Virus record (IMG/VR): IMGVR_UViG_3300044711_000046
Location: 1 to 55,694 of that record
Source of the DNA: a virus
Taxonomy: Duplodnaviria > Caudoviricetes
DNA length: 55,694 nt
Reading direction: 5' to 3' (one strand)
Below are positions 23,405 through 38,680 of the stretch, in pieces. Both the position numbers and the translations under genes were made by a program. The notes beneath the pieces were generated by a model, which saw only the letters and a program-made list of their open reading frames with translations, made no database searches and had not been told where the DNA came from. How positions within the stretch are numbered: the stretch's first letter is position 1; the number at the start of each line of letters is the position of its first letter.

Positions 23405-23820
23405 TATTCAACTGCCAGACTGCCGGTGATCGTAAACTTCACGAACTCGGCTGTAGTGATGTCGGTCAGGGTACCGCCAGCGTTGCGTGTGTTGAACGTT
23501 AACACCCGAGTCGTAGGATTGTAGTCGGTATCCTGCGACCACATCCCGGATGTTCCCCACACGTTTACCGAGATATCGAACACGACGGGAATCGTATCCT
23601 TGAACTTCACGGTATAGATTCCTGCGCTCGTACGCGTGATATCGCCGGCTGTCGAACTCACGAAGTTATTCGTCGCCGACATGAACGAAAGCGACGACGT
23701 AGCACTGAACGTCGTCGTTGGGATCGTCGGTGGGTTCGTCCCATTGCCCTGAACGGACCCAAACGCGACGACCACTTCACGGCTTACCGTGAACGATTCA
23801 GAGTACAGGGTCCTCAACAT
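23404..23820 (-). CDS. Head decoration-like protein, paralog A
   Basis: Directly after the major capsid gene; clear paralog of 22976-23404. Confidence 0.6.
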   Translation of the reverse strand: MLRTLYSESFTVSREVVVAFGSVQGNGTNPPTIPTTTFSATSSLSFMSATNNFVSSTAGDITRTSAGIYTVKFKDTIPVVFDISVNVWGTSGMWSQDTDYNPTTRVLTFNTRNAGGTLTDITTAEFVKFTITGSLAVE

Positions 23821-23829
23821 GACAAGACC

Positions 23830-25092
23830 TTACGGCAGCAGGATGACGCAGTTGTAGCCCGGGGCCTTGCAACTGAAGTTGTAGTACTCGCCGATGCGGG
23901 CCTCGTAGCCGTCGTTCGCCTCGGAGACCTTGATGATGCTACCCGCGCGCTTCTGGAGGAAGTTCGGCGCAGGACCGGCCGAGAACATGCACCAGGTCGA
24001 CCACGTGAGCACGTAGATGCGCTTCACAGGGCAGCAGCGATCCGTGTAGAGCGTCAGGTTCTTCCCGTTGAGGTTCACACGGAACCCGTCGAACCCGACG
24101 GTCGCCATCTTCTTTCCGTCGTAGCCGACGGCCGAGCTGATAACCCACTTGCCTTCGAGTTGCTTGGTCAGCGTCCCGAAGGTGATCGGATTCATCCACA
24201 CGACATCGGGATCTCCGCCAATGTTGTCGACGGCAGCGACGGCATCGACGAGCAGATTCGGAATCGAACGGCCATCCGTACCGTCGATTCGAATGCCGCC
24301 GAGATAGTCTGACTCCGTGGTGCGGTCGACGTTGTAAAACAGCGTCGCGCTCGGCGCCGCATCGGGAACCCAGTCAGCGAGGCCGGACGATGCCAGGAAG
24401 CTACCAGCGGCAAGGATGTCACCGTTGAGGTATAGGAAGTCCGATGCCGCAATCGCGGCGATACCGGCCGATAGGTTGCCCGTCGCGGTGAACGTGCCGA
24501 GAACCCGGTTGACGGTAGCGATCGTGAAGAACGTACCCGCCGAGCGAAGCGCGCCGCCGAGCGTGGCGCTCGCGACAATGTTTTCGCCCTGTCGAATGCC
24601 CCACATCGAGCTGATGTCGACAAACGCACCGTTCACCGACGCGACGGTAGTCGTCGAGGTAAGCTGTCCAACTTCACCCGCAGCGGTGCGGAAGAAACGG
24701 AAGTTGATGTAGTTACCCTCGGCCTCGATGCCGTTGTCGAACTCATCGAATGCCGATTCGAACGCGTCCTCGTCACCGGTGGCAGTCGCCTCGATCGCCT
24801 GGTTGTCGACCTTGGCGATCCGGTAGTGCGTCTTGCGGGTGACGTTGAAATTCTTGTACGAGCTGATGTTGTTCTGCGCGTTCGTGACCGCGGTAGCGAA
24901 CACCGATGCGCCGCCACCGGGCAGCGCGGTCATGATGGGCTGCACCCATTCGCGACCGCCCACGAGCTTCTTCTGGCTCTTGGCGAGCATGCCGGTCGCC
25001 TTGTTTTTCTGCATCGCCATACGGGCGATTTCGAACGGGGAATAGTGCTCCTTGACCATCGGGTCAAAGGCGGTGAGATCCATAACAGCCAT
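23830..25092 (-). CDS. Major capsid protein
   Basis: 420 aa after portal and scaffold; GLADWVP, PDVVWMNP, YNFSCKAPGYN; strongly biased codons. Confidence 0.85.
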   Translation of the reverse strand: MAVMDLTAFDPMVKEHYSPFEIARMAMQKNKATGMLAKSQKKLVGGREWVQPIMTALPGGGASVFATAVTNAQNNISSYKNFNVTRKTHYRIAKVDNQAIEATATGDEDAFESAFDEFDNGIEAEGNYINFRFFRTAAGEVGQLTSTTTVASVNGAFVDISSMWGIRQGENIVASATLGGALRSAGTFFTIATVNRVLGTFTATGNLSAGIAAIAASDFLYLNGDILAAGSFLASSGLADWVPDAAPSATLFYNVDRTTESDYLGGIRIDGTDGRSIPNLLVDAVAAVDNIGGDPDVVWMNPITFGTLTKQLEGKWVISSAVGYDGKKMATVGFDGFRVNLNGKNLTLYTDRCCPVKRIYVLTWSTWCMFSAGPAPNFLQKRAGSIIKVSEANDGYEARIGEYYNFSCKAPGYNCVILLP

Positions 25093-25104
25093 GAGATTTG
25101 GTCC

Positions 25105-26424
25105 TTACGCTTGCTTTTTGAAGTGTTTGGCGAACAGCGCTTTGGCACTGGCCGCACGTCGGTCTCGCCGATCCATCGGATAATCCCGATCGTCGGCGTT
25201 CTCCTCCTCGACACGAGCGACGGGTAGCGAGGCTGGCTTCGCGGCTGGACCTGGTGCCGCACCTGTGGAAGCTACTTTCGCCGCTGGCGCCTTCGTCGGA
25301 GGAACGAGATATGGTTTCGATTTGAGTGCTTCGGCTTTCTTGAGGTCAGCCTCTGCCTTTTGCCGATAGAATTCGTTCGCCGCCTTCGTGGCGGTTTCGA
25401 GGTTCGGTTTCATCGTGTCGGGCAGCTGGTAGCCCGGGTTTTCGCGCTTCCACTTGTTCGCGGCTTCATCCTGCGCCTTGATCACGTCCCACACGATCAC
25501 GTTGGCAGCAAGGCCACCGGTGATGTCCGGATCATGCAGGTACGGATACGTCGCCTTGGCCGGCGCGATCAGTTGAGCGACCTGCGCAAGCGCATTCTGC
25601 TCGTGCGCGTGAGTCTCGGCTGCAGCCTTCGCATCGGCCGCAGCCTTCTCCGTCGCGATGCGTTGCTCGGCGAGTGCAGCTTCGCGCTTGCCGACGTCCG
25701 AGCGCATCGCCCGCATCGCCCGCATCGCCTTGCGAGAGTCAAGTCCGGCCTTGTAGTCGGGCGGCAGCTTGGCGTCGAGGGCCGTCTCGGAAAGCTCGGC
25801 GGTAATGTCAGCGATAAGCGTCTTCGCTTCCTCGGGATCCGTAACGCCGTACACGCTCTTGAGCCAGTTAATCAGCGTTGAGCCCGGCTTGTCGATCAGC
25901 GCGGCGAGGTCCGGTAGCAGTTTCTCGCGCTCGGCGAACTGCTTCTCCTTCTCCGCAAAGGTCCGCTCGCGCTCGTCCTGTAGTGCCTTAGCCTGAGCGA
26001 CGGCGGGATCGGGACCCGTCGGAGCGGGCGCCATCGGCAACGGGATGAGCGGGATAGGAAGCGGCGCCGCAGGAGCAGTAGGAGCAGCTACGGCAGGAGC
26101 CGCAGCGACAGCCGCAGGAGCAACCTCAGCCGCCTCAGTGCCCATCGGTTCGAGGTCGTCACCGACCACGACGACCGGATCGCCAGCTGCTTCGGCCTTG
26201 GCACCGGCCTCCGCCATGGCCCGAATCTTCGCCCGCACGCTGTCGCTGATGACGCGCTGGCCGCGTGGCTCACGGCCTGGTGGTGCCTCTGGATTGTCAC
26301 CCTTTTCGCCGTCGACGAGGACAGGCTGGACGCGTTCCGCTGGCGCGCGCGTGGTGATTGTGGATTCGGCGCCGTCCTCGTTGGTGGCGGTTTCTGTTAC
26401 TGCGGGCTCGAAGTCATCGCTCAT
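25105..26424 (-). CDS. Capsid scaffolding protein
   Basis: Ala/Pro/Glu-rich helical protein between portal and capsid; basic C-terminal helix. Confidence 0.7.
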   Translation of the reverse strand: MSDDFEPAVTETATNEDGAESTITTRAPAERVQPVLVDGEKGDNPEAPPGREPRGQRVISDSVRAKIRAMAEAGAKAEAAGDPVVVVGDDLEPMGTEAAEVAPAAVAAAPAVAAPTAPAAPLPIPLIPLPMAPAPTGPDPAVAQAKALQDERERTFAEKEKQFAEREKLLPDLAALIDKPGSTLINWLKSVYGVTDPEEAKTLIADITAELSETALDAKLPPDYKAGLDSRKAMRAMRAMRSDVGKREAALAEQRIATEKAAADAKAAAETHAHEQNALAQVAQLIAPAKATYPYLHDPDITGGLAANVIVWDVIKAQDEAANKWKRENPGYQLPDTMKPNLETATKAANEFYRQKAEADLKKAEALKSKPYLVPPTKAPAAKVASTGAAPGPAAKPASLPVARVEEENADDRDYPMDRRDRRAASAKALFAKHFKKQA

Positions 26425-28421
26425 GAGACACCTGGGGGTAGAGCACCTGGGGGTAGGGACAGCGGCATTCCGGCCGCTAACTGAGAAGTGGCACCCATCA
26501 TTGGGTCCGTGATTCCGGGCGGCGCGGTCATGGCCGCCATATCAGGCGGCGCTGGCATTCCGGCATCAGGCGGCGGCGCACCAGCGCCAGGAGGCATAGC
26601 CGGCGCAGCATTCTTCATGCTGTTGCTCGCATCGAGCATCTGGAGGAACCACCGGTAGCGACCGAGCGCCGCATCCTTGGCGCCGCGCGAGAACGCATCG
26701 CCGAGAGTTCCCTTGGCCATCTCGAGGGCAAGTACCGGGTCCATCTCCGGGGTGGGCGCGCAATCCTCAAGAGGGATATCCTCGTTGCCGAGCATCTCCA
26801 TGACCTTTTCGATCATCCGCTTGGGTCCGAGGATGTGTCTGAACTCGCGCGCGATGTCCGGCTCCTCGAACAACGAGGCCGTCTGAAGCGGCGAGGTCAA
26901 GAGGCCGGGAATCTTGCCGAGGTCACCGAGCGCATCGAGTTTGCCGGCTCGCGAATCGGGCAGGAAGTTGATCGGCTCGATGTTGAGGTGGTATCCGCCG
27001 CTATCGAAATCGAATTTCTTCCACTCGATCTCCCTGATCCACGACGCTTTCTCACCTTCAAAGTCTTTGTCGTCGGCGAGATCCTTCGCTTCGTCGAGAA
27101 GGACCATCCCGATGTCCACGCGGCTCATCGCCTGTTGCGACTCTAGGAGGCTAAACCGGTCGGACTGGATGTCTTCCATCGTATCGAGCGCCTTGCCCGA
27201 CGCGTTTGGTCCGAGGCTGCTACGGCTGCTAGCGGATGCCTGACTGATGCCTGAAATCTCGTACATCTGCTGGATCAGCCATCGCAGGCTGTCCATCGCC
27301 TGGGTGCTGGCCGGATTTGGAGCGATATACTCGGGTTTCGCGCCATCGAACTCGATCGCGATTGGATGGCGAGCTCGCAGGTGGTGCTTGTTGACGTCGG
27401 AACCGCGCTGCATGAACACCTTGAGGCCCGAACCCCAGTACAGGGCCTCCTGGTGATCGTTCCACAACTCGTTGACCTTGTTCTGGCTACCGCCAAGCTG
27501 CTGGATCAGCCCGATGCCGTAGAAACCGCGCATCGCCGGTGTCCATTGGATGCGCGCGACCGGGAATCGAGTCCGATTCCACTGGTATTCATCGAGTGGC
27601 TTGCCGCCATCACGGATCGTGACTACGCAGAGGCCGTCCTCGGCACCGGGATACGACGGAAGCGACCAGCCGGTGATCATCTCGATCTGGTCGCTGTCGA
27701 TCGGTGAGTCGTAGTCGTACGGGTCCCAGTAATCGCGTGGCGCTTGACTCACCTTGCGGATTCGAGCAGCAGCGTCGGGGTACTGCGCCGCCAAACGGTC
27801 GCGATCTACGCGCTTAACGCGCGCGAGCCGCAGCGGCATGCCATCACGCGCCTCGCCATCGTCGAAAACCAGCTCAGATCGCGGGAATTTCTCGATGCCG
27901 ACGTCTCCGCCCTGGCGAACCGCCTGAACGAAACCATCTCCGCGCACCACGCCATCGCGCAGGAACATCGGCATCATCCGCTCGATGGACGGCTGACCCA
28001 TCTTGCGGCGCAGGATGCGGCTCGCGGACTCCGCGTAGAGTTTTTCGCTGTATTCCGCGTCGTCGCAGCTGATGATCGGCATCGGTCGGCGTTTCGCCAC
28101 ACGGCTGACTACCGTGTCCACCATCGACTGAAGGACGTTGAGATAGCTGGACGCCTTGCTCTGCGCGCGAAGGAAGTCCATCGCCGCTGTAGCGATACGT
28201 CTGCCCACAGGCCTGCCCTCGTAGATGGCCTCGTGGATCAGATCGAGCGTGTTGTACCCGCGGAGAAACGCGCGACGCGTCTCGACCCACGAGATCAAGC
28301 CATCAGAAGTCGGCTTACCCGATTGCTTCCACCACCGATCGGTGGTTAGCGTCGGTTCCTCGGGCAACTCACGGCCCGGACGTGTATCGGCGACGTCCTT
28401 AGGTTTGCGGACCGACGCCAA
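26421..28421 (-). CDS. Portal protein
   Basis: 666 aa; NVLQSMVDT, GFYGIGLIQQL, YEISGISQ, NASGKAL; Pro/Met-rich tail. Confidence 0.85.
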   Translation of the reverse strand: MASVRKPKDVADTRPGRELPEEPTLTTDRWWKQSGKPTSDGLISWVETRRAFLRGYNTLDLIHEAIYEGRPVGRRIATAAMDFLRAQSKASSYLNVLQSMVDTVVSRVAKRRPMPIISCDDAEYSEKLYAESASRILRRKMGQPSIERMMPMFLRDGVVRGDGFVQAVRQGGDVGIEKFPRSELVFDDGEARDGMPLRLARVKRVDRDRLAAQYPDAAARIRKVSQAPRDYWDPYDYDSPIDSDQIEMITGWSLPSYPGAEDGLCVVTIRDGGKPLDEYQWNRTRFPVARIQWTPAMRGFYGIGLIQQLGGSQNKVNELWNDHQEALYWGSGLKVFMQRGSDVNKHHLRARHPIAIEFDGAKPEYIAPNPASTQAMDSLRWLIQQMYEISGISQASASSRSSLGPNASGKALDTMEDIQSDRFSLLESQQAMSRVDIGMVLLDEAKDLADDKDFEGEKASWIREIEWKKFDFDSGGYHLNIEPINFLPDSRAGKLDALGDLGKIPGLLTSPLQTASLFEEPDIAREFRHILGPKRMIEKVMEMLGNEDIPLEDCAPTPEMDPVLALEMAKGTLGDAFSRGAKDAALGRYRWFLQMLDASNSMKNAAPAMPPGAGAPPPDAGMPAPPDMAAMTAPPGITDPMMGATSQLAAGMPLSLPPGALPPGVS

Positions 28422-28860
28422 TCATAGGCACGTGCGCATTCCCTGGGGCGCAGTTGCTACGGTCGCACGGATACTTCACGACTCGCGGCTCGGTCGTGAG
28501 CGTTGACGTAAAATCGACCCACGGCGAACGTGTCACCTTGATCTCGAAGCACAACTCGCCGAGCACGTACAGCCGATCGTACTCAACGCTCGGACGGTCC
28601 ATGCTGTGAGTTCCCTGCTGATACTCGAGCAGGCATTCGCTCGGCTGGTATCCAAGCGCCAGTACGTGGCGAGCGAACTCCTCCATCATGTTGCGGCGCG
28701 GCGCCATCTGCTCGCTGACGGACTTCATGATCTCGTCGGAGATTTCCTTGCCACGCGCAAAATCATCCTTGAGCGTCCGTCGCTTGCTCGGTTTTGGCTT
28801 GACCCAGTCCGGTACGTTGGTCCGTAGATGATCGAACATCTTCAGGTCCATGGCCGGCAT
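28399..28860 (-). CDS. Hypothetical protein with capsid-like N-terminus
   Basis: MPAMDLKMFD vs capsid MAVMDLTAFD. Confidence 0.6.
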   Translation of the reverse strand: MPAMDLKMFDHLRTNVPDWVKPKPSKRRTLKDDFARGKEISDEIMKSVSEQMAPRRNMMEEFARHVLALGYQPSECLLEYQQGTHSMDRPSVEYDRLYVLGELCFEIKVTRSPWVDFTSTLTTEPRVVKYPCDRSNCAPGNAHVPMIGVGPQT

Positions 28861-29253
28861 CTACCTGTGCTCCGTACGGATGCCGTGGTCGAGCAGCCAG
28901 CCTTCGAGCTCCGAATGCACCGTCTCGACACCCTTGGCCATCGTATCCTGAGCCTTCGTCGTCGCGACGTACGGCTTGTGCAGGTAGATGACCTTGTCGA
29001 CAGGCGGACGCTCACCGGGATGCTTGTCGCGCCACTTGCGAAGTGCGCGGGATGCCGATACGCCTTCGACGATCCATGGACCCGGTTCGTCGAGCCATCC
29101 GGACACATGTGCAGAGCTGGACGACCAATCGAGACCCATGGTCAGCGTATCATCGGTGTGCTTGATGTTGTTGTGGCCGCTCGAATCGGCGAGCGACTCG
29201 GACAGCGAGGTCTTGCCGGTCCGTGGTCCACCGGTGATGAGGATGCGGGTCAT
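28861..29253 (-). CDS. Small P-loop kinase-like protein
   Basis: ILITGGPRTGKT, HTDD, WIVEGV. Confidence 0.7.
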   Translation of the reverse strand: MTRILITGGPRTGKTSLSESLADSSGHNNIKHTDDTLTMGLDWSSSSAHVSGWLDEPGPWIVEGVSASRALRKWRDKHPGERPPVDKVIYLHKPYVATTKAQDTMAKGVETVHSELEGWLLDHGIRTEHR

Positions 29254-29396
29254 CGGACCCGAGACCCTGCGCCAGCATCCCGGACGTGCGTCGCCGAATC
29301 GCAGTTGCCGGTCAAGTCGAGTCCGCCGCGGACCTCGGCGAGGAGGCGAACATTGATGACGCGGACCGTGTCGGTCTTTAGCTTGAGCTTCTTCAT
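29250..29396 (-). CDS. 48-aa peptide resembling a double-glycine RiPP precursor
   Basis: MKKLKLKTDTVRVINVRLLAEVRGG then a 23-aa core; ATGA overlaps at both ends. Confidence 0.55.
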   Translation of the reverse strand: MKKLKLKTDTVRVINVRLLAEVRGGLDLTGNCDSATHVRDAGAGSRVR

Positions 29397-29644
29397 CGGT
29401 TCCTTACAGCCGGCTCGAACTCGCCCTCGACCTCTGGCTTGTCGACCAAATCCTTGAACAGCTTGCCACCGAATTGACTGTAGGCCGTGTTGGCCTGGCG
29501 CTCCGGCATCTGCGTAGAGCGAGACCGTGGCGGCATCAGGGTAACGGTGCACGCGCCGATGGCGACCGAGGACATCTCAACGCCAACCGACGCGGCCCAC
29601 TCGATCATGAGGCGAACCTGCTCGGCGTCGCCCTCAAGACTCAA
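29393..29644 (-). CDS. Hypothetical protein between terL and portal
   Basis: 83-aa coupled ORF. Confidence 0.6.
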   Translation of the reverse strand: MSLEGDAEQVRLMIEWAASVGVEMSSVAIGACTVTLMPPRSRSTQMPERQANTAYSQFGGKLFKDLVDKPEVEGEFEPAVRNR

Positions 29645-29836
29645 GACACGACCTCAACGAGGGCAGAGGGCTCTACATCGCCAAGGCAACATTTGCCGCC
29701 ACGCCAGAACCCGATCTCGGTCGTCTTGTCGATGACGATCAGGACGTCGGTCGGACGCCTCAGACCAAACGCCCCAAGAATTGGGTACGCGAGAACGAAC
29801 ATCTGACCCGGCCGCAGAGCGCTGCGCTCTACAAAC

Positions 29837-31624
29837 CTATGAGTCGTAGTGGAAGTCAAGTGCGACATCTTCCAATTCCCTTTCCTCTCGTAGCACGTAA
29901 GCAGGCGTACCTGCAACAATCTTCGGTGGCTCCTCGCGGAACCTGTGATGGTAACTCTCACGGTGCCCATAGAGACCGGCATCGCTTGCATCCCTAGGGG
30001 TCGAGTCCTCGATTTCCTTACCCTCGGAACTTCGCAACGGCTTCCACCTATGCACCTTCCACTCATTCATGATAACCGAATCCTTACGAAGCTTTACGAA
30101 GCCACGACGGATGTCGTTGTTCATTTGCTTGATGGCCAGGCTTGACTTGTGATGCTTTGTCGCTTCCTGGATCGGAATACTGTACCTGGCCAGCCATTTC
30201 TTCGACCAACCCATCACGGCTGGCTTGCCGCCGCCACCGGCATCCGCGGTGATGAGGCTGATCACGATCTGCGAGCGCGCAGCGTTGAGCCACAGGGCCA
30301 TCTCGTCGTAGTCGAGACCGCTGCGCTTCCAGCTGCCGACCTCGTACAGGATCGGATCATGGAGCGACCACGCCCACGTGACCATCGCAAACGCAGCCCG
30401 GGTCCCGAGGTCGGCGCCAGTCGCGGTGAAGTAGTCGATCTTGCCGAAATTGGGCAGGTCCGCCATCGCGGCACGCAGGTCAAGAAAGCCATCGGGCGCG
30501 AGTCGCACCGGTGCGTAGACGATCTCGTGCTCAGGCACGGCATGGAGCGCGTAGACGTAGCGCGCATCATCCTTGATCCAGCGAGCAAAGTATTCTCGCA
30601 ACAGGTCAGGATCGTCGGTGGACCAGCCGTTTTCCCGGATCGCCTCACCGGCCGAACGTTCCCATCGGACCTTGATAGCAATGGCTTCGCACTCGGCCTC
30701 GCTGGCGAATGGGCCCCACCTATGGGCGTCGGTCTCGATGACATCGACCCAGGTCTCGGGCATGTCATCTGTAGCTGGTCGTAACTCTCGCTTCCACGTG
30801 TGCGTAGTTCGATCAGATCCAGGCTTGCCGAAGATGTTGTCCTCAACAAACCATTCGCCAGCCTCCCAAACGACTCGTCCAAAGAATGGGTTATCGACGG
30901 CCGCAATTCGATGGACCTCCCATCCCTTGGCTCGATCCTCCTCCTCTTCCTTGGTCACCTCATAGAACAGCCCGACGCAATCCTTACCCGGCGTACCGGT
31001 GAGCCAACACTCAGCCGCGAAGTCCTGCATCGCGGGAACGATGACGCTCTTGTAAAAGTCGTCCAGCGTCGGAAGATCCTGCGCCTCGTCGATCCAGAAC
31101 ACATCCTTGGCAATGCCGCGGAGTCGATCGGCTACGCCTTCCTGATCGGCACCGAACAGATCGATCTGTGAGCCGTTACTGAAGTCGACGATCAATTCAC
31201 CCTTGCGAATCCAAGCGGTCACACCGGCAAGGTCCCAGGCCTCGACTCCAGCCTGACGAAGTCGTTTACCCTTCTGTCGGATGATGTCGACGAATCCGGT
31301 CTTGGTGTCGTTGGCCCACGCGCGCTTGCGTGCATCCTTGAGTTTACCGGTGATGTACGTTGCGCGATGATTCGGCTGCTCAAGGCTTCTGCCGAGCAAC
31401 TCACGACAGCCACCGGCTGTAGCGCCGCTGCGTCGGGTTTTCTTTGTCGCCTTGCGCTTGGCTGGCGAGCGGAAATACGCGCGCTGCTTCGGGTAGAAGA
31501 ATCCGCGGATGTCCTCTACCAGCTTTGCGATTAGCGCCGTCGCTTCGGCGACGGCATCCGGCGCCGACTCGCGAGCTGCACGCGCGGCAAGCAATCGAGC
31601 GACGTCGAAGCGGTCCAGATCCAT
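29837..31624 (-). CDS. terL: Terminase large subunit
   Basis: YPKQ Q-motif, TRRSGAT (atypical Walker A), LRG...WIDEAQD, LTGTPG, DNPF, GADLG and DASDA nuclease motifs. Confidence 0.9.
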   Translation of the reverse strand: MDLDRFDVARLLAARAARESAPDAVAEATALIAKLVEDIRGFFYPKQRAYFRSPAKRKATKKTRRSGATAGGCRELLGRSLEQPNHRATYITGKLKDARKRAWANDTKTGFVDIIRQKGKRLRQAGVEAWDLAGVTAWIRKGELIVDFSNGSQIDLFGADQEGVADRLRGIAKDVFWIDEAQDLPTLDDFYKSVIVPAMQDFAAECWLTGTPGKDCVGLFYEVTKEEEEDRAKGWEVHRIAAVDNPFFGRVVWEAGEWFVEDNIFGKPGSDRTTHTWKRELRPATDDMPETWVDVIETDAHRWGPFASEAECEAIAIKVRWERSAGEAIRENGWSTDDPDLLREYFARWIKDDARYVYALHAVPEHEIVYAPVRLAPDGFLDLRAAMADLPNFGKIDYFTATGADLGTRAAFAMVTWAWSLHDPILYEVGSWKRSGLDYDEMALWLNAARSQIVISLITADAGGGGKPAVMGWSKKWLARYSIPIQEATKHHKSSLAIKQMNNDIRRGFVKLRKDSVIMNEWKVHRWKPLRSSEGKEIEDSTPRDASDAGLYGHRESYHHRFREEPPKIVAGTPAYVLREERELEDVALDFHYDS

Positions 31625-31626
31625 CC

Positions 31627-31875
31627 CTACTCGATGGTAGCGAAGCCTTCATCGGTCACGGTCAGGATGCCATCGGCGCGAATCCATGCGCTCGGCTTGC
31701 CGTCGTCGTCATCGGGGGAATCCTTCGGGAGGTTCTCCGTGCGGGACTTGCACGCAAGAATGACGCTGCGTAACGCGATCTCCCAACTGCCGTTCCATGG
31801 CGATATGCACCACAGCAATGGTGATGCGCCATGCCGATTGAAGTACACACGCCAGGCCCCGCGCATCTGGATCAT
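31627..31875 (-). CDS. Hypothetical protein
   Basis: MIQMRGAWRVYFN...; coupled to upstream ORF. Confidence 0.55.
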   Translation of the reverse strand: MIQMRGAWRVYFNRHGASPLLWCISPWNGSWEIALRSVILACKSRTENLPKDSPDDDDGKPSAWIRADGILTVTDEGFATIE

Positions 31876-32105
31876 GACGCCTCCTCCGCGTTCCGTGCCT
31901 CGATCTTCATGCCCATGCGGGCGAGCGCTATCGTGGCGCTGTCTCCGAGCATGAAGATGCGCAGCAGGCACTGCGGACACGTGGCGCGCTGAATCGATTC
32001 GGGCTCCAAGATCCAATCGCCGACAAAGATGGCACTGTCACCTACGACAAGTTTTTCATCGCAAAAGATCTCGCCATCACGTGCATCTGCCTCGACGTGG
32101 ATCAT
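31872..32105 (-). CDS. Hypothetical protein with CxxC
   Basis: ATCPQCL; coupled ORF. Confidence 0.55.
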   Translation of the reverse strand: MIHVEADARDGEIFCDEKLVVGDSAIFVGDWILEPESIQRATCPQCLLRIFMLGDSATIALARMGMKIEARNAEEAS

Positions 32106-32196
32106 TTCTTGGCCGCCTTGATTCGCGCCAGGATCTCTCTCGCCTTGGCCGACAGGCCGGACGGTGCGCCCTTGGGTTTGTCGATCTTGCGGTTGC

Positions 32197-32511
32197 TCAC
32201 GTCGGCGCCATCAGCTTGCAGAAGCTCTCGAACGCTGACCGCAGCCGAACGCCAGCGGCCTGTTGCGCGTTCTGCGCGGCGAGAGAAGCCAAAGCTGCCG
32301 CCTTGAGCTCGGCATAGCAGTCGGCCTCGGAACCGGTCAGGGTGACTCCGACCGGGGGATCGATCGCAGCCGAGGTCTTGGCGAACTCCTCGCTGGATTG
32401 GTCCCAGGGGCGCTGGGCAGCTTCCGCTGGTTCGTGCTTGAGCCGCTTGCGGTCGACCAAGGGAAGGCCAATCATGGTCGTTTCGTCCAGCTTCTTGAGG
32501 TAGTCCGTCAC
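32197..32511 (-). CDS. Small protein with a portal-like segment
   Basis: VDRKRLKHEPAEAAQR vs portal VDRDRLAAQYPDAAAR. Confidence 0.55.
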   Translation of the reverse strand: MTDYLKKLDETTMIGLPLVDRKRLKHEPAEAAQRPWDQSSEEFAKTSAAIDPPVGVTLTGSEADCYAELKAAALASLAAQNAQQAAGVRLRSAFESFCKLMAPT

Positions 32512-32747
32512 GGTGCGTCACCCTGATCGAAGATCGGCCACTTCTCAGCTTGCTGCCTGGTCCAACACAACTCCGGGAACGGCAGATCCTCGGTCGAGCC
32601 TTCAACCCGATACGTTCGGTCCTTGAAGTTAACCCTGCCGATCCTCCGACCGCTGGCATCTCGACAACCAATATCCAGATGGATCGCGCTATCGGGAACT
32701 TCACTGAATCGTACAGTGCCATCCCCCATCGGGCAGTATATCTTCAC
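32508..32747 (-). CDS. Small protein resembling portal fragments
   Basis: 13 of 38 positions identical to the portal GGDVGIEKFPRSE...RVKRVDR segment. Confidence 0.6.
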   Translation of the reverse strand: MKIYCPMGDGTVRFSEVPDSAIHLDIGCRDASGRRIGRVNFKDRTYRVEGSTEDLPFPELCWTRQQAEKWPIFDQGDAP

Positions 32748-32932
32748 TTGCCGTACCCAGGCAGCTTCGTCGGCGCCCCGGGATGTGACTCCGGTGGCGA
32801 CTCGGCCGTCTTGACCTGATCGGAGTCCTCACGCAGGCGGTCGACGCCGGCCGTCGATTCCCAGGTTTTTGGCATCACGCGTGCCTCGGAGATATCCGTA
32901 GATGCGCCCTTGTCTCGTGGTGCGAGTCCCAT
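32744..32932 (-). CDS. Small hydrophilic protein (PRD pair, B)
   Basis: PRD-x6-I[TS]xA[KR]xMP shared with the neighbour. Confidence 0.6.
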   Translation of the reverse strand: MGLAPRDKGASTDISEARVMPKTWESTAGVDRLREDSDQVKTAESPPESHPGAPTKLPGYGK

Positions 32933-32933
32933 G

Positions 32934-33092
32934 TTACTTGCTGCCTTTCTTGCCGCCGCTCGGTGCCGTCATGGCATCCGCAACGGCTAGCGAATTGATT
33001 GGGTTACCGGCGTTGTCGACCGGTGCGGACGGCATCTTCTTTGCCGCCGTGATCTGATCTTCGGAAATTGGGTCACGTGGAACCATGGTCAT
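32934..33092 (-). CDS. Small hydrophilic protein (PRD pair, A)
   Basis: MTMVPRDPISEDQITAAKKMPS. Confidence 0.6.
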   Translation of the reverse strand: MTMVPRDPISEDQITAAKKMPSAPVDNAGNPINSLAVADAMTAPSGGKKGSK

Positions 33093-33097
33093 AGGAA

Positions 33098-33832
33098 TCA
33101 GTCCTCCTCGCAATAGGTTACCTGATTCCGCTTGGCGATGCGATCTACTTCGGCGGTCGCCTTGACCTTGAGCCGCAGCTGCGCCGACCAGTGAGCCGAG
33201 ACGGCATCCTTCTGGTTCTGGGTCCACGTCCATGGGTCGGCGTTACGCCACGACATGCCAGCACCGAGATTCTTTTCTCGATCGGCATGCTGGCGTAGCT
33301 CGATCAGGTCTCGCAACGTTACTCCATCGTACTGGACGTCGAGCGGATCGATTGGATACATCCCAGTTGTGATCGTTCCGCGATCCGGATCTACCGCGGT
33401 GACGATACCCAGATCGATCGGTCCAGCCGAGATCGTACATGTGCCGTCCTGGACCAACGTCGTATAGCGGATCTTCATGATCCTAGCCGGCGAGACATCA
33501 TGATCGTGACGATTGCACTCGGCCACGAACTTGTCCCACGTATCACGATCCAGCGCCAGATACGGCGTCCTCCTGGTTCCGATAATCTCACTATCTTCCT
33601 TGCGCATCTGCGCGATCATGTTGTCGGCCTCATCGAAGATGGTGTTGAGCGCAGCATGCTCACAGCGCGCTGCTTTCTCGACGATAGTCCGCGCGATTGT
33701 ACGTCCATCCCTTCGAGCGCCACGCTGAACGAGCAGGACGAACTGTGAAATTTTCACCATCTCGATCCACACCCTTGAGTCCGGGTAGTGCTCGCGGAAC
33801 ACAGGCGTGAAGACTGCGTGTAGGTCAATCAC
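33098..33832 (-). CDS. Internally deleted major-capsid-like protein with unrelated C-terminus
   Basis: DLHAVFTPVFREHY and IFDEADNMI match capsid DLTAFDPMVKEHY and AFDEFDNGI. Confidence 0.6.
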   Translation of the reverse strand: MIDLHAVFTPVFREHYPDSRVWIEMVKISQFVLLVQRGARRDGRTIARTIVEKAARCEHAALNTIFDEADNMIAQMRKEDSEIIGTRRTPYLALDRDTWDKFVAECNRHDHDVSPARIMKIRYTTLVQDGTCTISAGPIDLGIVTAVDPDRGTITTGMYPIDPLDVQYDGVTLRDLIELRQHADREKNLGAGMSWRNADPWTWTQNQKDAVSAHWSAQLRLKVKATAEVDRIAKRNQVTYCEED

Positions 33833-34086
33833 TTCTTCGCTCCTTGGACCGGTGCCACAACTACGATGGCGCGACGAATCTGCTTGACGTTGTGACGTGG
33901 GATGACATCCACGACCGGGTCTTTTCCACCGGTCCAGGTCATCTGAATATCGCCGTCATCAAGTTCGACCATATCGATGGTCTTCATGAGCCCGTCGGTC
34001 TCGCTCATGCGATCGGTCCAGCGGTCACGGTCGTAGTTGCCCATGGAGATATCGCCATTGAATCGTACGAAGGTTAGTTTCTTCAC
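33829..34086 (-). CDS. Hypothetical protein
   Basis: GTG start overlapping previous stop; KKLTFVRF...IPRHNVK. Confidence 0.55.
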   Translation of the reverse strand: MKKLTFVRFNGDISMGNYDRDRWTDRMSETDGLMKTIDMVELDDGDIQMTWTGGKDPVVDVIPRHNVKQIRRAIVVVAPVQGAKK

Positions 34087-34319
34087 GAAGCATCCTTGTT
34101 GATCAGACCAAGCATCGGATGCCTCCGGCCGGCCATCTCGGTGATAGTGTCGCTGTTGTAGTAGCTGGCGTACATCTCGGCCGTCATCGAGACGTCCATC
34201 ACCTCGAGTTGATGACGACGAGCGTCCCATGCGCGGCGCGCGAATGGTCGCCACCATGGCGGACGTGGCGACATCGCCGCAAGCTGCTCGTCTCGGACCT
34301 CGCGAAGCGACTTCCTCAC
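34083..34319 (-). CDS. Small protein whose C-terminal half resembles the capsid N-terminus
   Basis: 10 of 36 ungapped identities to capsid residues 3-38. Confidence 0.55.
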   Translation of the reverse strand: MRKSLREVRDEQLAAMSPRPPWWRPFARRAWDARRHQLEVMDVSMTAEMYASYYNSDTITEMAGRRHPMLGLINKDAS

Positions 34320-34690
34320 GAAGACACCACTAGTCGCCCTCGCGGCGAGGTCGTATCCTGCACGATGGCCGACATGCCCTCGACAATGGTGGTCACATGC
34401 GACTCGCGAATGATCATGAGTTCCTTGCTGCCATCCTCGGGATCGGGAAACACGAGCTGCTCGCCTCCGTTGGCCAGGCGAAAGAACGTGATGGTATCGC
34501 CGTCCTTGACCTTGAGCGGAACGACAGAACCGGTGTTGGTGATCCGGCCATGGCCGGCGCTCACAACCTCAGCGAAGAGGAACGGCGTGTTATCCAGCGC
34601 GGTCTGCGGGATGTAGAGGCCACCCGAGGTGCGCTCGCCTTGGCTGAGCACGCGGATGATGAGGCGATCGTAGAGAGGTGTCATTTTCAC
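34316..34690 (-). CDS. groES: Co-chaperonin GroES
   Basis: PLYDRLII, ERTSGGLYIP mobile loop, EVVSAGHGR, LKVKDGD, IIRESHV. Confidence 0.9.
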   Translation of the reverse strand: MKMTPLYDRLIIRVLSQGERTSGGLYIPQTALDNTPFLFAEVVSAGHGRITNTGSVVPLKVKDGDTITFFRLANGGEQLVFPDPEDGSKELMIIRESHVTTIVEGMSAIVQDTTSPRGRLVVSS

Positions 34691-35145
34691 TTCAGAAACT
34701 CCTCGATAGGTACATACCTGGACCCACGGTAAGCAGAACGCATGGCGTCGGATGACGGACCATGCGAGGTACAGATGACAGGAACGCCGGGCTCGACGCC
34801 GATGACTTCGAGCATCGCACGCGCGATGCCTTTGCCGCGTTCCATTTGACGGACCCACAGATAGTGGACCGTCGGACACGGCTGATTGACTCCAAACGCA
34901 ATCCAACCAAGGATCACATCGTCGTTTTCATCCCACGCGGTGATCAGGCACCGGCTCCCTGGCAGGTCCATCAGCCGGTCCACGTAGGCGTTGACCTGTC
35001 TCCCAATAGGAGCCCCCATCGAGCGATCGAGCCCGTGTCGCCGCTGGTGATGCGGCACCGCCTTGTGGGCGTGCGTCGACACCATCGAGCGTACCCAAGT
35101 GGATGCCACGAAGGCCTGATCGGAGTCGCGTGGCTGGCGGATCAC
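34687..35145 (-). CDS. GNAT acetyltransferase
   Basis: VHYLWVRQMERGKGIARAML acetyl-CoA binding motif. Confidence 0.8.
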   Translation of the reverse strand: MIRQPRDSDQAFVASTWVRSMVSTHAHKAVPHHQRRHGLDRSMGAPIGRQVNAYVDRLMDLPGSRCLITAWDENDDVILGWIAFGVNQPCPTVHYLWVRQMERGKGIARAMLEVIGVEPGVPVICTSHGPSSDAMRSAYRGSRYVPIEEFLK

Positions 35146-35323
35146 TTCGGATCCTCGAAGTCGCTAAGCGGAAGAGGAACCGTAGCGCCTCGCTGCGTCG
35201 CGCGCAGATTCCGATAGCCTGGGTTCAGCACGAACATCGCAGCATCAGCCTTGCGTACCCTCTCGATGAGGTCATCGACCTCGGCATCGGTCATCGGAAT
35301 GACGCGGAGCCAGTCCGGACGGA

Positions 35324-35704
35324 TCACTTGGGCACCTTGAATAGGGTTGCCCAATCGGATTCGAACTCGTTCGAGAGCTTCGAGCGATCCGATTCGATCG
35401 GAGGAAGCTTGGCTCGCTCGGACTTCCACGCGATGATATCCGGCCATTCGGCCGCCTGCTCCATCAGATCGTTACAGATATGACACGCATCATGGTCGAG
35501 ATACGACCATCGAGTCGGTCCCGAGTTTCTGCATCGTGACTCGCAGTTGTCGTCGTGAACCGGAACGTCAACCATTGGACACGTCTCGCGCTCCCATTTT
35601 CCATTGCGACGCGAGTCGACAACCCATTGCTTGAGCCGCGCGCCAGGCAAGGCGTACATGTCCATGAGCATCGGATCGAACGCCTCGAGGTCCAGCTTGG
35701 CCAT
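35324..35704 (-). CDS. Cys/His-containing protein with capsid-like N-terminus
   Basis: MAKLDLEAFDPMLMDMY vs capsid MAVMDLTAFDPMVKEHY (10/17). Confidence 0.65.
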   Translation of the reverse strand: MAKLDLEAFDPMLMDMYALPGARLKQWVVDSRRNGKWERETCPMVDVPVHDDNCESRCRNSGPTRWSYLDHDACHICNDLMEQAAEWPDIIAWKSERAKLPPIESDRSKLSNEFESDWATLFKVPK

Positions 35705-35985
35705 TAGCGCAACGCCTTTCGCAAAGCCTGGCCGGCCTCGCTGGTATCGGACCACAGCACAGCGCGCTGGTCCGGTGTGAGTTCCTTGGCAACCTTGGCG
35801 ATCTGCTTGCCGCGCAACTGCGCCATGCCAAGACCGTAGGCCGTCATGCCCCATTCCCAGCGCGACGGATGGCCATGCCATGGCACTGGGTATCGCACGC
35901 CGGTGGCGACCAGCGCTTCATACCACTCGCTGCCCGGTCGTAGTGGTTGCAACTGCAGCTGGTCGTCAAGAGACAAGAGACTCAT
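35704..35985 (-). CDS. Hypothetical protein
   Basis: MSLLSLDD...; TAATG overlap with the next gene. Confidence 0.5.
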   Translation of the reverse strand: MSLLSLDDQLQLQPLRPGSEWYEALVATGVRYPVPWHGHPSRWEWGMTAYGLGMAQLRGKQIAKVAKELTPDQRAVLWSDTSEAGQALRKALR

Positions 35986-36342
35986 CGCTTCCCCCTCGGC
36001 AGCTGGTTCGCCGTCAGCTTGCGGCACTTCTCCTGTAAAGGTCGCAGTTGCTGCGTGGTGCAGCGCTGCGTGTCCTCGCCCCAGGGACTCGAGCCGTCAA
36101 GCCAGGTCCATTGCTGCGGCTCGTACTCGACCCATTGGTCGTCTGGCTGATTCATGAGTCCGCCCCGATCACCCATTCGTTTACCGAGCGAGATTTCTGA
36201 TGAAAATAGCTAAGTAACTTCTCTTTTTCATCGCATCGACTCACATATCGATCTGCTTCGTCCTTGCTCAAAAACACAGCCTCTACCTCCTCGCCCGGAC
36301 AGCAGACATTGCCATCTTCGGCCATGACGATCCAGACCGTAC

Positions 36343-36885
36343 TCACTTCAACTCCATAAGCTGGAACCGCCGCTCGGCTCCGCTCTCGTCCGTCGTGGTA
36401 ACCACCGGTGTGGCTTCGCCACCAAACTTGCGGTCCAGGAGATCCTTCGTGGTCTGCGCCCAATCGATTGGTAGCGCATTGGCCTCCACTGGTGCGTGCA
36501 GCGTCTTGCCAGGTACGAACTCCGTTCCGATGGCGCACGCGTGGGCGTCGTACTCGCGACGCGCCAGCTCGGGATCTGTCACGCGCAGCCCACACCAGCC
36601 ACATGCGCACTGGGTGAAAAACTGTTCGATGCCATCGGCACCGAGCACCGACAGCTGTAGCGCGGCGGCTCGGTTGCGCTTGCCGATCCCGGTCCGCAAC
36701 TCGTTCGTGGACTTGGCCGTCAGCGCGTTCTGCTTCGCCTTGAGCTCGATGGCGCGATTGTACTGCGCCTCGCTCAGGTATCCTTCGCGCCTCAGGTCAC
36801 GCGGCGTGCAGTCGACATCGGTGATGCCAATACCGTCGTTGTTGTCGACGAAACCGAAACGGGCACGGGCGATGTCGTCGGTCAT
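36343..36885 (-). CDS. Hypothetical zinc-finger-like protein
   Basis: CACGWCG...YDAHAC; ends RFQLMELK. Confidence 0.55.
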   Translation of the reverse strand: MTDDIARARFGFVDNNDGIGITDVDCTPRDLRREGYLSEAQYNRAIELKAKQNALTAKSTNELRTGIGKRNRAAALQLSVLGADGIEQFFTQCACGWCGLRVTDPELARREYDAHACAIGTEFVPGKTLHAPVEANALPIDWAQTTKDLLDRKFGGEATPVVTTTDESGAERRFQLMELK

Positions 36886-37302
36886 GGCCTTGACTCCACG
36901 AGAAACTTGAGCGCGCTCTCGAGTTCCGTCCATTGCATCACCGATCGCCTGTGGGCATCGGCGTATGCGTCGCGATCGTCACAGGCATCAGCGCGGTGAA
37001 CGCGCTCACGATACGCGGCGTACTTGCGAACCATTCGCATCAAAGATTTGACGCTAACCGGCTCCAGGATCTCTTGCTCATCGGCGCTCATGGCGACGCC
37101 CCGCATCCGCAATGCCAACACACGGGAACGTTGACCTCTCCGTCCGCAAAGCCATCACGTTCGGGTTCGCCTTCTCGCAGCCTGGCTCGCAAGTCTTCCT
37201 CTAGCTTCCGCTCGCCCTCGCTACCCTTCTCCGCGGTGCCATACGCCCATGCGAGCCGCTTCAGCGACCAGTTAGAGGTGTCACCGAGAGGCTGTGGCTC
37301 GC

Positions 37303-37506
37303 TCATCGCAACCCCCACGTCGCGCGCCATTGCTTGACTTCAGCGTCGCGTTCCGAATCCGACGATCGATGCAGCCGATGATTCAGTCCAGCAGCTGCGA
37401 AGACCAGCGACCACTCGTGCTCATTAGCCGGGGTCGCGATGTTGGTTGTGGCGTCGTATGTGACGCCCACGATTCTGTCTTGCTGCGAAGTACCTGGGTC
37501 GCGCAT
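37303..37506 (-). CDS. Small protein with a fragment similar to virion protein 7446-8276
   Basis: 15 of 30 ungapped identities. Confidence 0.6.
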   Translation of the reverse strand: MRDPGTSQQDRIVGVTYDATTNIATPANEHEWSLVFAAAGLNHRLHRSSDSERDAEVKQWRATWGLR

Positions 37507-37903: not shown

Positions 37904-38680
37904 CTAGCCTAGCGTCTGTAGGCCTTGACGCACAATGGAAAACGTAGGCGTACCCGTGTCGTTCGTGCTCTGCATCTTGCACCGGTGCGCTGCAGGGACG
38001 CGCCAGCGGAGCAGCATCGTGGAGCTGGTCTGCAAGGCCAGGCCGATGGTGAGCGTCCCGGTGCTCTCACTCTGCACCGATTGGACGACCGTCGTAGGGT
38101 TCGTGTTCGCATCGCACAGCAGGTCCACATGGCCGGCGGAACCACCGGTAAGGCTGAGGCTGTTCACGATCTTGACGTTGACCGAGTACTCGGTGTCGTG
38201 AGTCGCATCGAACTGGACGGCCGACCCGCCGATCGTTAGGCTTGGCGTACTTGAACTGGTCACCAGCGCTCCTGGACCAATGGCGCCCTGCATGCCCGTG
38301 CTTCCCGTTGCACCGGTGGTACCCGTAGATCCGGTCGCTCCGATGGGACCCTGCGGGCCGGTTGCGCCCTGCGGGCCGGTAGCCCCAAGGCCGATGTTCG
38401 GGTTGGTGTGAAACTGTCCGTCACCGTTGCCCTCAACGGAACCGGATACGTACACTGCGGCAAGCGCGAGCTGCGAGCTCAGTCCCACTGGCATCACGTA
38501 GCTGCTGGTGCCCAAGGTGAACACGACGATGTTGTAGCTGCCGTCGTTGTTGTCCCCAGTAACTACCGCCGCGTAGCTGTTCGAACTGTTGTACCGGTAG
38601 ATCACCGACTGCCCGATTACCGGCGTTGCCAAGGCCTCGGTCGACCATGCAAGCAAGCAGAACGTCAACAGATATCTCAC
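37904..38680 (-). CDS. Collagen-repeat protein with signal peptide
   Basis: MRYLLTFCLLAWSTEALA leader; GATGPQ-type Gly-X-Y run. Confidence 0.75.
   Translation of the reverse strand: MRYLLTFCLLAWSTEALATPVIGQSVIYRYNSSNSYAAVVTGDNNDGSYNIVVFTLGTSSYVMPVGLSSQLALAAVYVSGSVEGNGDGQFHTNPNIGLGATGPQGATGPQGPIGATGSTGTTGATGSTGMQGAIGPGALVTSSSTPSLTIGGSAVQFDATHDTEYSVNVKIVNSLSLTGGSAGHVDLLCDANTNPTTVVQSVQSESTGTLTIGLALQTSSTMLLRWRVPAAHRCKMQSTNDTGTPTFSIVRQGLQTLG

Follow-up and report, generated by a model that had tools for sequence, protein, structure and literature searches.

Small proteins encoded by a soil phage are related in sequence to the N-terminal arm (N-arm) of the phage's own major capsid protein; the relationship is conserved across relatives and the carriers have a modular architecture. 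The N-arm (residues 1-40, in one family together with the start of the spine helix) appears to have been copied and kept in three or more families of small proteins that are unrelated to each other (F1, F2 and F3). With a probability of roughly 0.4 we assume that it is reused as a portable binding module, by which accessory proteins would be attached to the scaffold or the capsid lattice while the head is being assembled, and we infer from the sequences that the carriers may bind there, may be recruited to the head and may have some later role.

Capsid-related segments in small genes

The window analyzed here is a complete 55.7-kb phage contig, which encodes its own terL, portal and capsid genes. 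The following features, all on the minus strand, are relevant for the analysis:

7446-8276, minus strand: protein of the late gene block, predicted LamG-like jellyroll (atlas structure rows)
23830-25092, minus strand: major capsid protein, 420 aa, predicted HK97 fold (AlphaFold2, Foldseek), source of the copied segments
24718-24825, minus strand: capsid residues 90-125, second block common to F2 (hhalign, modelled secondary structure)
24973-25092, minus strand: capsid residues 1-40, the N-arm, resembled in F1, F2 and F3 (secondary structure from the AlphaFold2 model)
25105-26424, minus strand: scaffold-like protein of 439 aa, encoded between portal and capsid (position, composition, C-terminal alignment of 21 sequences)
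26421-28421, minus strand: portal protein (phrog_156, E 2.7e-8)
28399-28860, minus strand: gene of 153 aa immediately upstream of portal, similarity to the capsid unsupported past the first 10 residues
32197-32511 and 32508-32747, minus strand: two small ORFs, claimed portal likeness not supported
33098-33832, minus strand: F2, 244 aa; residues 1-90 (33563-33832) resemble a cut-down capsid N-terminal region
34083-34319, minus strand: F3, 78 aa; basic, Trp-rich leader followed by capsid-like residues 39-77
34316 to about 34690, minus strand: GroES-like co-chaperonin (Cpn10 E 1.6e-13; PHROGs)
34687-35145, minus strand: GNAT acetyltransferase (Acetyltransf_1 E 8.6e-6; PHROGs)
35324-35704, minus strand: F1, 126 aa; residues 1-18 (35651-35704) are N-arm-like and precede a Cys/His-rich core
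37303-37506, minus strand: 67-aa ORF; similar in residues 7-42 (37381-37488) to the N-terminus of the 7446-8276 family

The AlphaFold2 model of the capsid protein, based on 84 sequences, reached a pLDDT of 92.6 and a pTM of 0.90. Foldseek placed the SU10 capsid first (7z48_F, E 1.6e-10), followed by HK97 and encapsulins, and returned 252 PDB matches at E<=0.001 with phage capsids and encapsulins at the top. According to this model 23830-25092 is an HK97-fold major capsid protein with N-arm, E-loop, spine helix and A and P domains; helices are predicted in the N-arm at residues 6-16, 19-27 and 31-39, and residues 90-125 run from the end of an E-loop strand through a short helix into the first part of the spine helix. 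The protein has no Pfam or PHROG family match and its family comprises 2100 library representatives at E<=0.001. Conservation of its N-terminus extends over 22 relatives and the wider family, in which K14 and K38 both reach at least 90%. No family match was obtained for the scaffold-like protein, in which the alignment revealed a conserved basic C-terminal helix (last 80 residues encoded by 25108-25347).

The initial annotation had described seven small ORFs around terL as diverged fragments of the phage's own virion proteins. All seven are open reading frames at the positions given, and Pfam and PHROGs contain no match for any of them. Most are coupled as described, by 4-nt GTGA overlaps at 32511, 32747, 33832 and 34319 and a 1-nt TAATG overlap at 35704, but a 36-nt gap is located at 37506; at the 28860 junction the ATG directly follows the TAG. 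In a Smith-Waterman screen of 64 small ORFs against 18 structural proteins with 60 shuffles each, just two ORFs stood out, namely 37303-37506 and 35324-35704, and the other five were in the noise. Comparison with structural-protein profiles, controlled by shuffled, reversed and real-ORF sets, confirmed the relationship to the capsid or to 7446-8276 for four of the seven (F1, F2, F3 and 37303-37506) and rescued 33098-33832 and 34083-34319 beyond the single-sequence noise. It had been overlooked that the copied capsid piece is specifically the N-arm, joined in F2 by the spine helix start.

In F1 the first 18 residues match capsid residues 1-18 (z 3.3, score reached by 1 of 60 shuffles), and other members of the family end in a motif resembling capsid residues 19-42, which the copy in the window does not have; this copy also carries a Met at the position of the nearly invariant Lys of the capsid family (K14). 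The F1 family scored 39.5 against the capsid profile (decoy maximum 26.4), and an alignment of 13 sequences matched the broad capsid family in two colinear blocks with scores of 38.6 and 24.9, for which the maxima of 40 decoys were 21.4 and 16.3.

As a single sequence F2 was indistinguishable from noise (z -0.99), but its first 90 residues matched the capsid at the family level in two colinear blocks, with scores of 38.6 and 29.9, where none of 60 column-shuffled decoys exceeded 21.1. Block 1 corresponds to the N-arm and block 2 to the spine helix start, with columns 40-75 aligned to capsid residues 90-125 at a score of 38.6 and E 4.8e-5 (hhalign of the F2 family with the capsid profile). An alignment of six F2 sequences has five columns that are still invariant, and four of these (P10, V11, Y16 and P17) are located in the N-arm block. 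The model of residues 1-90 is of moderate confidence (pLDDT 73), and Foldseek found no fold match for it. F3, which was also in the noise as a single sequence (z 1.19), resembles capsid residues 2-40 in its residues 39-77 (34089-34205); the family scored 28.9 against the capsid (maximum of 60 decoys 17.4), and 36.1 with more members. A fourth N-arm carrier was found in the relative G003 (32.2 versus 17.4). For comparison, the next-best real small-ORF family among 22 scored 19.2 against the capsid.

The remaining assignments could not be upheld. The supposedly capsid-like ORF 28399-28860 (z 0.44) has an anchored 10-residue match with a score of 25, but this N-terminus is not common to its two homologues and the family scored 8.1 against the capsid. 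For the two supposedly portal-like ORFs 32508-32747 (z 0.55) and 32197-32511 (z 1.25), the portal was not the top match of either among the 18 structural proteins, and their scores against the portal profile, 15.0 and 17.0, are below the decoy maximum of 23.6.

The claimed resemblance of 37303-37506 to 7446-8276 was clearly reproduced (z 6.6, score in 0 of 60 shuffles; profile score 45.8, decoy maximum 18.7), with the copied segment at residues 31-66 (8079-8186) of the latter. Its residues 26-240 align to Laminin_G_3 domains with a TM of 0.71-0.76, which predicts a concanavalin-like or LamG-like jellyroll; the start is probably at 8174, Pfam and a PDB sequence search returned nothing, homologues are present in three of five relatives, and gene position alone suggests that it is a virion protein. 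The small ORF itself has a weak coding signal (0.022 per codon), no orthologues in the five relatives and clear similarity limited to its N-terminal block. It is a case separate from the N-arm carriers and may be a remnant only.

Age, distribution and architecture of the carriers

Judged by their sequences, the F1, F2 and F3 copies appear to be old and maintained. As the initial annotation had proposed, the DNA has diverged beyond a recent duplication: six of eight identical non-Met residues shared by the capsid and 35704 are encoded by different synonymous codons, and no direct DNA repeats of at least 40 nt exist between the genes. F1 is found at nine metagenome loci as well as in G002 and L007, and some of these phages have capsids that are only about 25-50% identical to that of the window (L044 45-54%, L042 25%); seven pairs with at least 50% identity gave a dN of 0.40-0.49 at a dS of 0.9-1.4. 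In a 4 x 4 score matrix of four phages the own-clade capsid N-terminus was the top score for each F1 N-terminus, so that the F1 tag tends to follow the N-terminus of its own capsid; this covariation comprises three independent clades only.

Each of the three families occurs in other phages, and all three are missing from three of five complete relatives (G001, G004 and G005) and are therefore dispensable. The module is N-terminal in F1 and F2 and C-terminal in F3 and the G003 carrier. The payloads differ as well, and consist of a Cys/His-rich core in F1, of a separate domain in F2 (residues 161-244; homologues in three of five relatives), which is preceded by other N-termini in relatives, and of a long C-terminal extension in two F2 members. 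The phage clade is mosaic, and the interval between terL and the portal gene holds variable genes. In G002 and G003 the F2 gene is located directly upstream of the portal gene, and in G002 the F1 gene lies between terL and portal. In the window the N-arm mini-genes adjoin GroES and are interleaved with the GroES-like and GNAT genes, which are present in five of five relatives. These positions are consistent with a role in head assembly; a portal-vertex location for F2, based on gene position, is speculation.

Possible docking to the assembling head

In several other phages the N-arm of the capsid protein is a scaffold-binding element: the N-arm in the prohead state binds the scaffold protein (PMC11922011), and in 80alpha its helix alpha-1 is contacted by the C-terminal helix of the scaffold (PMC5644958). 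Since the scaffolding protein holds the N-arm in such procapsids and the N-arm also packs against neighboring subunits, carriers of the module would be expected to seek out this partner too. It could be the scaffold protein (25105-26424), with its conserved basic helix at the C-terminus, or the site on capsid subunits that receives the N-arm, and either one might bring the carriers to the head under assembly, where they would be minor proteins, cargo or proteins associated with a vertex. If they dock to the scaffold, cargo might exit with it at packaging and not stay in the head. Among the functions proposed in the initial annotation (sensor decoys, dominant-negative inhibitors, docking tags for cargo), docking tags fit this anatomy best, because one N-arm module is combined with unrelated payloads at either end of the carrier and is patchily present among relatives.

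By description, the N-arm-like segment in three or four unrelated families can be set beside the capsid targeting sequence (CTS) on internal proteins of T4, a short shared peptide that sends unrelated, dispensable and diverse proteins into the prohead scaffolding core (PMC3012670). Both have the logic of a module plus payload and an accessory distribution. In contrast to the CTS, the shared piece of the mini-genes is a copy of the capsid's own N-arm (18-40 residues, plus the spine helix start in one family), which is N-terminal in just two families and also occurs at the C-terminus of carriers. Unlike in the T4 system, no prohead protease was detected among the 39 proteins scanned; the only protease label, phrog_595, was on the ADP-ribosyltransferase-like region of a 1561-aa protein. 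Encapsulins, which are not viruses, use short cargo-loading peptides to attach different kinds of cargo to the inside of a shell with the HK97 fold. A short docking piece for such a shell would be common to them and the mini-genes, but these peptides are not known to be copies of a shell-protein segment, whereas the module derives from the capsid itself.

SaPI1 CpmB is a small protein that mimics the C-terminus of the 80alpha scaffold and binds the capsid N-arm (PMC5644958), and SaPIbov5 Ccm is a diverged, satellite-encoded capsid homologue with the full HK97 fold that forms pentons (PMC8569155). Like CpmB, the mini-genes reuse a putative contact element of an assembly protein in a small protein; CpmB, the product of a satellite, copies the scaffold side of the contact, whereas the mini-genes, which belong to the phage itself, copy its capsid side. 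Mimicry of the CpmB type was not found in the Smith-Waterman screen, in which the scaffold was the top match for 3 of 64 small ORFs (28399-28860, 2843-3007 and 46536-46727), all at noise level with z <=0.44. With Ccm as described the mini-genes share the use of a diverged capsid copy outside its normal role, but F1, F2 and F3 have 78-244 aa and contain the N-arm only, with or without the spine helix start. A full-length HK97 paralogue was rejected, as the carriers match just capsid residues 1-40 with or without 90-125, and so was a satellite or island origin, as the genes sit in the phage contig and in related phage contigs. Furthermore, the F2 gene upstream of the portal in two relatives can be set, by description, beside the portal vertex protein (PVP) of phage P74-26, a minor component of the head that inserts its N-arm into the lattice of the capsid at this vertex (PMC12407722). 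Nothing like capsid N-arm mini-genes was found in the literature searched.

Alternative explanations and implications

The same sequence evidence would also be expected if the N-arm copies capped the scaffold or capsid subunits without being built in, and thereby timed or chaperoned the phage's own assembly or poisoned that of co-infecting relatives. The structural mimics of SaPI1 and SaPIbov5 that redirect assembly (PMC5644958, PMC8569155) are a precedent, the genes adjoin the conserved GroES gene, and a tag that tracks the capsid N-terminus of its own phage would be expected of a self-directed regulator. Nevertheless, we regard such modulators as unlikely: capping a site needs no diverse payload domains, and a dominant-negative protein directed against relatives would also strike the phage's own very similar N-arm. 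A decoy function, in which the fragments soak up capsid-recognizing host sensors without triggering them, seems quite improbable. Some defence systems sense capsid proteins, and the mini-genes resemble counter-defence genes in their accessory distribution among relatives, but there is no link to a defence system in the window, the copied part is an internal assembly arm and not the whole fold or a surface, and a literature search on capsid decoys found no such case.

It is also improbable that the mini-genes are functionless remains of past events that duplicated or recombined structural genes at their 5' ends. The mosaic clade with its variable genes between terL and portal would be in line with this idea, which fits 37303-37506 best (weak coding signal, no orthologues in five relatives, N-terminal block only), but F1, F2 and F3 are intact, translationally coupled and conserved in divergent phages with the capsid-like block kept. 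Chance or a shared composition, for example of an amphipathic helix, is hardly credible and already disfavoured. The matched stretches are short (18-40 residues) and the single-sequence scores of 33098-33832 (22.9) and 34083-34319 (17.7) are near the decoy range (maximum 21.4), but no decoy and none of the 22 real-family controls reached the family-level scores, two colinear blocks are present in F1 as well as in F2, and one and the same capsid segment is matched again in independent genomes.

Going beyond the docking of accessory proteins, we tentatively suggest, as a doubtful but possible extension, that the N-arm might be a genetic address label: a protein that has the module at one of its two ends would enter the procapsid or be attached to it via the capsid's own contact, and the label would co-evolve with the capsid. 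If true, this would be a protease-independent cargo-loading and vertex-decorating system based on a self-derived mimic, and it would offer a natural template by which proteins of choice could be packaged into HK97-fold shells. In addition, by searching for partial self-paralogues of structural proteins one can recover small genes that are real and conserved but missed by family databases. The rules by which minor and cargo proteins enter the heads of tailed phages are known in few model systems only, and carrying a copy of the capsid N-arm is a sequence-defined candidate for such a rule, which recurs in several gene families and phages and is therefore directly testable.

The phage contig and its capsid protein

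The window, 55,694 bases long, is a complete contig. Its GC content is about 60%, and from 4.2 kb onward the minus strand carries nearly all genes. A direct repeat of 148 nt (1-148 and 55547-55694, 99% identical) at both contig ends represents a terminal repeat or, if the genome is circular or permuted, an assembly overlap. A megablast search of the phage collection with 23830-31624 returned no match and no close phage record. Identifiable proteins of the window include the following:

23830-25092, capsid protein, 420 aa, HK97-type by model
25105-26424, scaffold-like protein, Ala/Pro-rich
26421-28421, portal
29837-31624, large terminase (terL)

The 420-aa protein had no match among Pfam and PHROG families. 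Its AlphaFold2 model, built from 84 sequences, reached a pLDDT of 92.6 and a pTM of 0.90, and Foldseek returned 252 matches in the PDB at E<=0.001, the SU10 capsid, HK97 and encapsulins ranking first. On this model the protein is an HK97-type capsid protein with a fold of high confidence, in which the N-arm (residues 1-40) forms helices at 6-16, 19-27 and 31-39, followed by the E-loop hairpin (78-96) and the spine helix (108-133). The family comprises 2100 library representatives at E<=0.001, and its N-terminus is conserved: K14 and K38 occur in 90% or more of the 84 sequences. Capsid proteins 53-86% identical to that of the window are encoded by 22 IMG/VR loci, and five complete relatives (G001-G005) were fetched for comparison. 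A further capsid protein, 75% identical, is encoded by an 8.5-kb contig binned with a Chloroflexota MAG (L051, single MAG contig, genome scan with alignment A3); the bin hints only weakly at the host, and the phage contig may have been placed in it wrongly. In a distant relative (L044, 9041-10389) the capsid gene is divided over two reading frames; a sequencing error, a frameshift or a programmed shift could account for this.

Several other genes of the contig deserve mention. The two adjoining genes just downstream of the capsid gene (22976-23820) are paralogues with 41% identity over 135 residues, and no PHROG family matched them. Between the terL and portal genes lies a P-loop kinase-like protein (28861-29253; AAA_18, E 7.4e-5), whose homologues occupy the same slot in G001, G004 and G005. 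The late 1561-aa protein (8946-13631) is ADP-ribosyltransferase-like at residues 479-642 (phrog_3895, E 4.8e-13), residues that also match a PHROG labelled head maturation protease. The protein probably belongs to the virion, as an internal or ejected component. A collagen-like (Gly-X-Y), tail-fibre-like protein (37904-38680) is encoded far from the late structural block, and its G004 homologue inside the structural block. Short in-gene repeats were found at 40497-40787 (period 9-15 nt, 17 copies) and at 54654-54953 (15 nt period, 14 copies), the latter suggesting a pentapeptide-repeat protein.

Small ORFs resembling structural proteins

The initial annotation had described seven small ORFs as carrying segments that resemble the capsid, the portal and the protein 7446-8276. 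All seven are open, and six are coupled to the upstream gene, in keeping with that description; the seventh is not. When 64 small ORFs were screened by Smith-Waterman against 18 structural proteins (60 shuffles each), none of 60 shuffles reached the score of 37303-37506 against 7446-8276 (z 6.6), and one of 60 reached that of 35324-35704 against the capsid (z 3.3). The remaining five claimed ORFs did not rise above noise. A six-frame scan with capsid residues 2-18 scored 49 at the ATG of 35704, compared with 39 for the best of 300 shuffled queries. An anchored match to the capsid N-terminus was also scored at all 2187 possible start sites.

Start sites among the best non-self anchored matches to the capsid N-terminus
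35704, score 49, real gene start
33832, score 34, real gene start
11948, score 26, internal site, no gene start
28860, score 25, real gene start

The proposed DNA divergence of the N-terminal copies was confirmed for 35704, where six of the eight non-Met residues identical to the capsid differ in their synonymous codon. The DNA upstream of 35704 is unrelated to that upstream of the capsid gene, and a shared translation-initiation DNA element is out, there being no DNA similarity upstream or at the codon level.

An HMM was built from 13 distinct capsid N-terminal 20-mers and run against the six-frame translations of 23 sources, 930,000 residues in all. Besides capsids, it found 35704 with its G002 orthologue, one G003 ORF and a group of ORF starts in L008, G002, the window (33832) and G003, and this group forms one family of about 90 residues, here called F2. 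The families of 35324-35704 (F1), 33098-33832 (F2) and 34083-34319 (F3) were then compared with the capsid profile using column-shuffled decoys.

Profile-profile comparison of the three families with the capsid protein
F1, columns 1-18 vs capsid 1-18: score 39.5; decoy maximum 26.4 (60 decoys)
F1, 13 sequences vs broad 84-sequence capsid alignment, N-terminal block: 38.6; decoy maximum 21.4 (40 decoys)
F1, 13 sequences vs broad capsid alignment, F1 C-terminus vs capsid 19-42: 24.9; decoy maximum 16.3 (40 decoys)
F2 block 1, columns 3-23 vs capsid 4-23: 29.9; decoy maximum 21.1 (60 decoys), reversed alignment 19.3
F2 block 2, columns 40-75 vs capsid 90-125, colinear with block 1: 38.6; decoy maximum 21.1, reversed 19.3
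F3 (34083-34319 and homologues), residues 39-77 vs capsid 2-40: 28.9, 36.1 with more members; decoy maximum 17.4 (60 decoys)

F1, F2 and F3 thus exceeded their decoy maxima, and the capsid likeness of 35704, 33832 and 34319 was borne out at the family level. In a real-sequence control with 22 small-ORF families of the window, F1 scored 43.9 and F3 36.1 against the capsid profile and the rest at most 19.2, among them 33098-33832 with 14.1, for which the automatic family held only its C-terminal homologues. A fourth carrier in G003 is a 144-aa ORF just upstream of terL, residues 96-120 of which match capsid 4-28 (score 32.2; maximum of 25 shuffles 17.4). The sole new locus from a scan with alignment A1 (L041) reads as a chance match in a non-coding frame of an unrelated phage. 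Taken together, these comparisons establish, at the level of sequence, the relationship of the modules to the capsid N-arm and its conservation.

Three of the proposed likenesses were not recovered. The portal profile scored 15.0 and 17.0 with 32508-32747 and 32197-32511, within the range of 128 decoys (maximum 23.6), and the top Smith-Waterman match of both ORFs is not the portal. The capsid likeness of 28399-28860 is unsupported because its N-terminus has no hhalign match, its only homologues (in L007 and L022) have residues 34-132 in common and not the N-terminus, and its family scores 8.1 against the capsid. A protein database search with this ORF returned only itself. Its slot lies directly upstream of the portal gene and is held by F2 in G002 and G003.

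For 37303-37506, a 67-aa ORF, the likeness to 7446-8276 was substantiated: residues 7-42 align with the N-termini of the four proteins that make up the 7446-8276 family (hhalign 45.8, E 1.8e-7; decoy maximum 18.7). Atlas structure rows (TM 0.71-0.76) point to a LamG-like jellyroll for 7446-8276, a PDB sequence search with the family found nothing, and its putative role as a virion protein is deduced solely from position. An internal-deletion copy was considered for 37303-37506, and its tail scored 11.8 against the C-terminus of 7446-8276 (shuffled-tail maximum 11.3), too weak to claim.

Distribution and upkeep of the three families

F1 has three relatives in a collection of 5.8 billion proteins and nine metagenome loci, plus copies in G002 and L007; the phages carrying it include L044 and L042, whose capsid proteins are 45-54% and 25% identical to that of the window. 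Its Cys/His-rich core is conserved. In seven pairs with at least 50% identity, dN is 0.40-0.49 and dS 0.9-1.4; with dS close to saturation, no more can be read from this than that dN lies well under dS. There are five distinct F2 members, and four of the five invariant columns of the six-sequence F2 alignment (P10, V11, Y16, P17) fall within the N-arm block. Every one of the six F3 sequences (two are identical) retains an internal segment resembling the outermost N-terminus of the capsid protein. When viral contigs were scanned with patterns for 35324-35704 and 34083-34319, no relatives emerged. Conservation in related phages is partial: each family occurs in some relatives, and all three are absent from G001, G004 and G005. 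All five complete relatives have the GroES-like co-chaperonin and the GNAT acetyltransferase beside it (34316-35145), two genes that sit amid otherwise variable small ones and might be linked to the folding or modification of the capsid.

In a 4 x 4 matrix every F1 N-terminus scores highest with the capsid N-terminus of its own clade (window F1 tag 47 and 44 vs 14 and -2; L044 31 vs 20-23; L042 20 vs 12-16). That the tag tracks the capsid of its own clade is suggestive only, because the matrix amounts to three independent clades. Two DNA runs match the window exactly wherever they cover it, so no population dN/dS was obtainable. In the rhizosphere run, some contigs have 1 nt inserted at 34356, near the GroES gene end, and 3 nt at 37377-37378, inside 37303-37506; at the low depth these may be errors.

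A possible binding module for the assembling head

Several rival explanations to a binding module can be considered for the carriers. They might be remnants, and for 37303-37506, with its weak coding signal and no orthologue in the five complete relatives, a decaying remnant is a fair reading. They might also serve as immune decoys, or have a modulator or interference role without incorporation into the head. An N-terminal processing or degradation signal was set aside, because F3 and the G003 carrier have the module at an internal or C-terminal position. Complex prediction with the C-terminal 80 residues of the scaffold-like protein (alignment A6) and the F2 domain (A5) gave 0.18 at a mark of 0.32 and speaks neither for nor against a contact. 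A Foldseek search of the PDB with the F2 domain model had no match at E<=0.001, and the Atlas search with 35324-35704 was uninformative (top feature score 0.77).

In the literature searched, we came across no phage described as encoding partial copies of a capsid N-arm. The nearest working analogy is the T4 capsid targeting sequence (PMC3012670). In contrast to T4, the putative label here reproduces the arm of the phage's own capsid protein and is N-terminal in some carriers only, and a scan of 39 proteins turned up no prohead protease. Two satellite proteins differ as well: CpmB imitates the scaffold in the contact between scaffold and capsid N-arm (PMC5644958), and Ccm is a full-length capsid homologue (PMC8569155). 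For F2, the P74-26 portal vertex protein (PMC12407722) suggests a variant in which the protein might fill contacts missing at the portal vertex, going by gene position only.

In several phages the N-arm binds the scaffold protein in the prohead state (PMC11922011), and in 80alpha the C-terminal scaffold helix packs on N-arm helix alpha-1 (PMC5644958). At the C-terminus of the scaffold-like protein 25105-26424, a Pro/Ala-rich linker leads into a conserved basic helix, and the copied capsid segment has conserved acidic residues. Carriers have the module at one end or the other, fused to payloads that are unrelated to each other, among them a domain (33098-33832, residues 161-244) that stands behind other N-termini in relatives. 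From this contact in other phages, the basic helix, the acidic segment and the variable position and varied payloads of the module, we infer, with a probability of roughly two in five, that the copied N-arm is a binding module. It would bring its carrier to whatever the capsid N-arm itself binds, either the scaffold helix or the N-arm site of capsid subunits, and by this contact the carrier would reach the assembling head.
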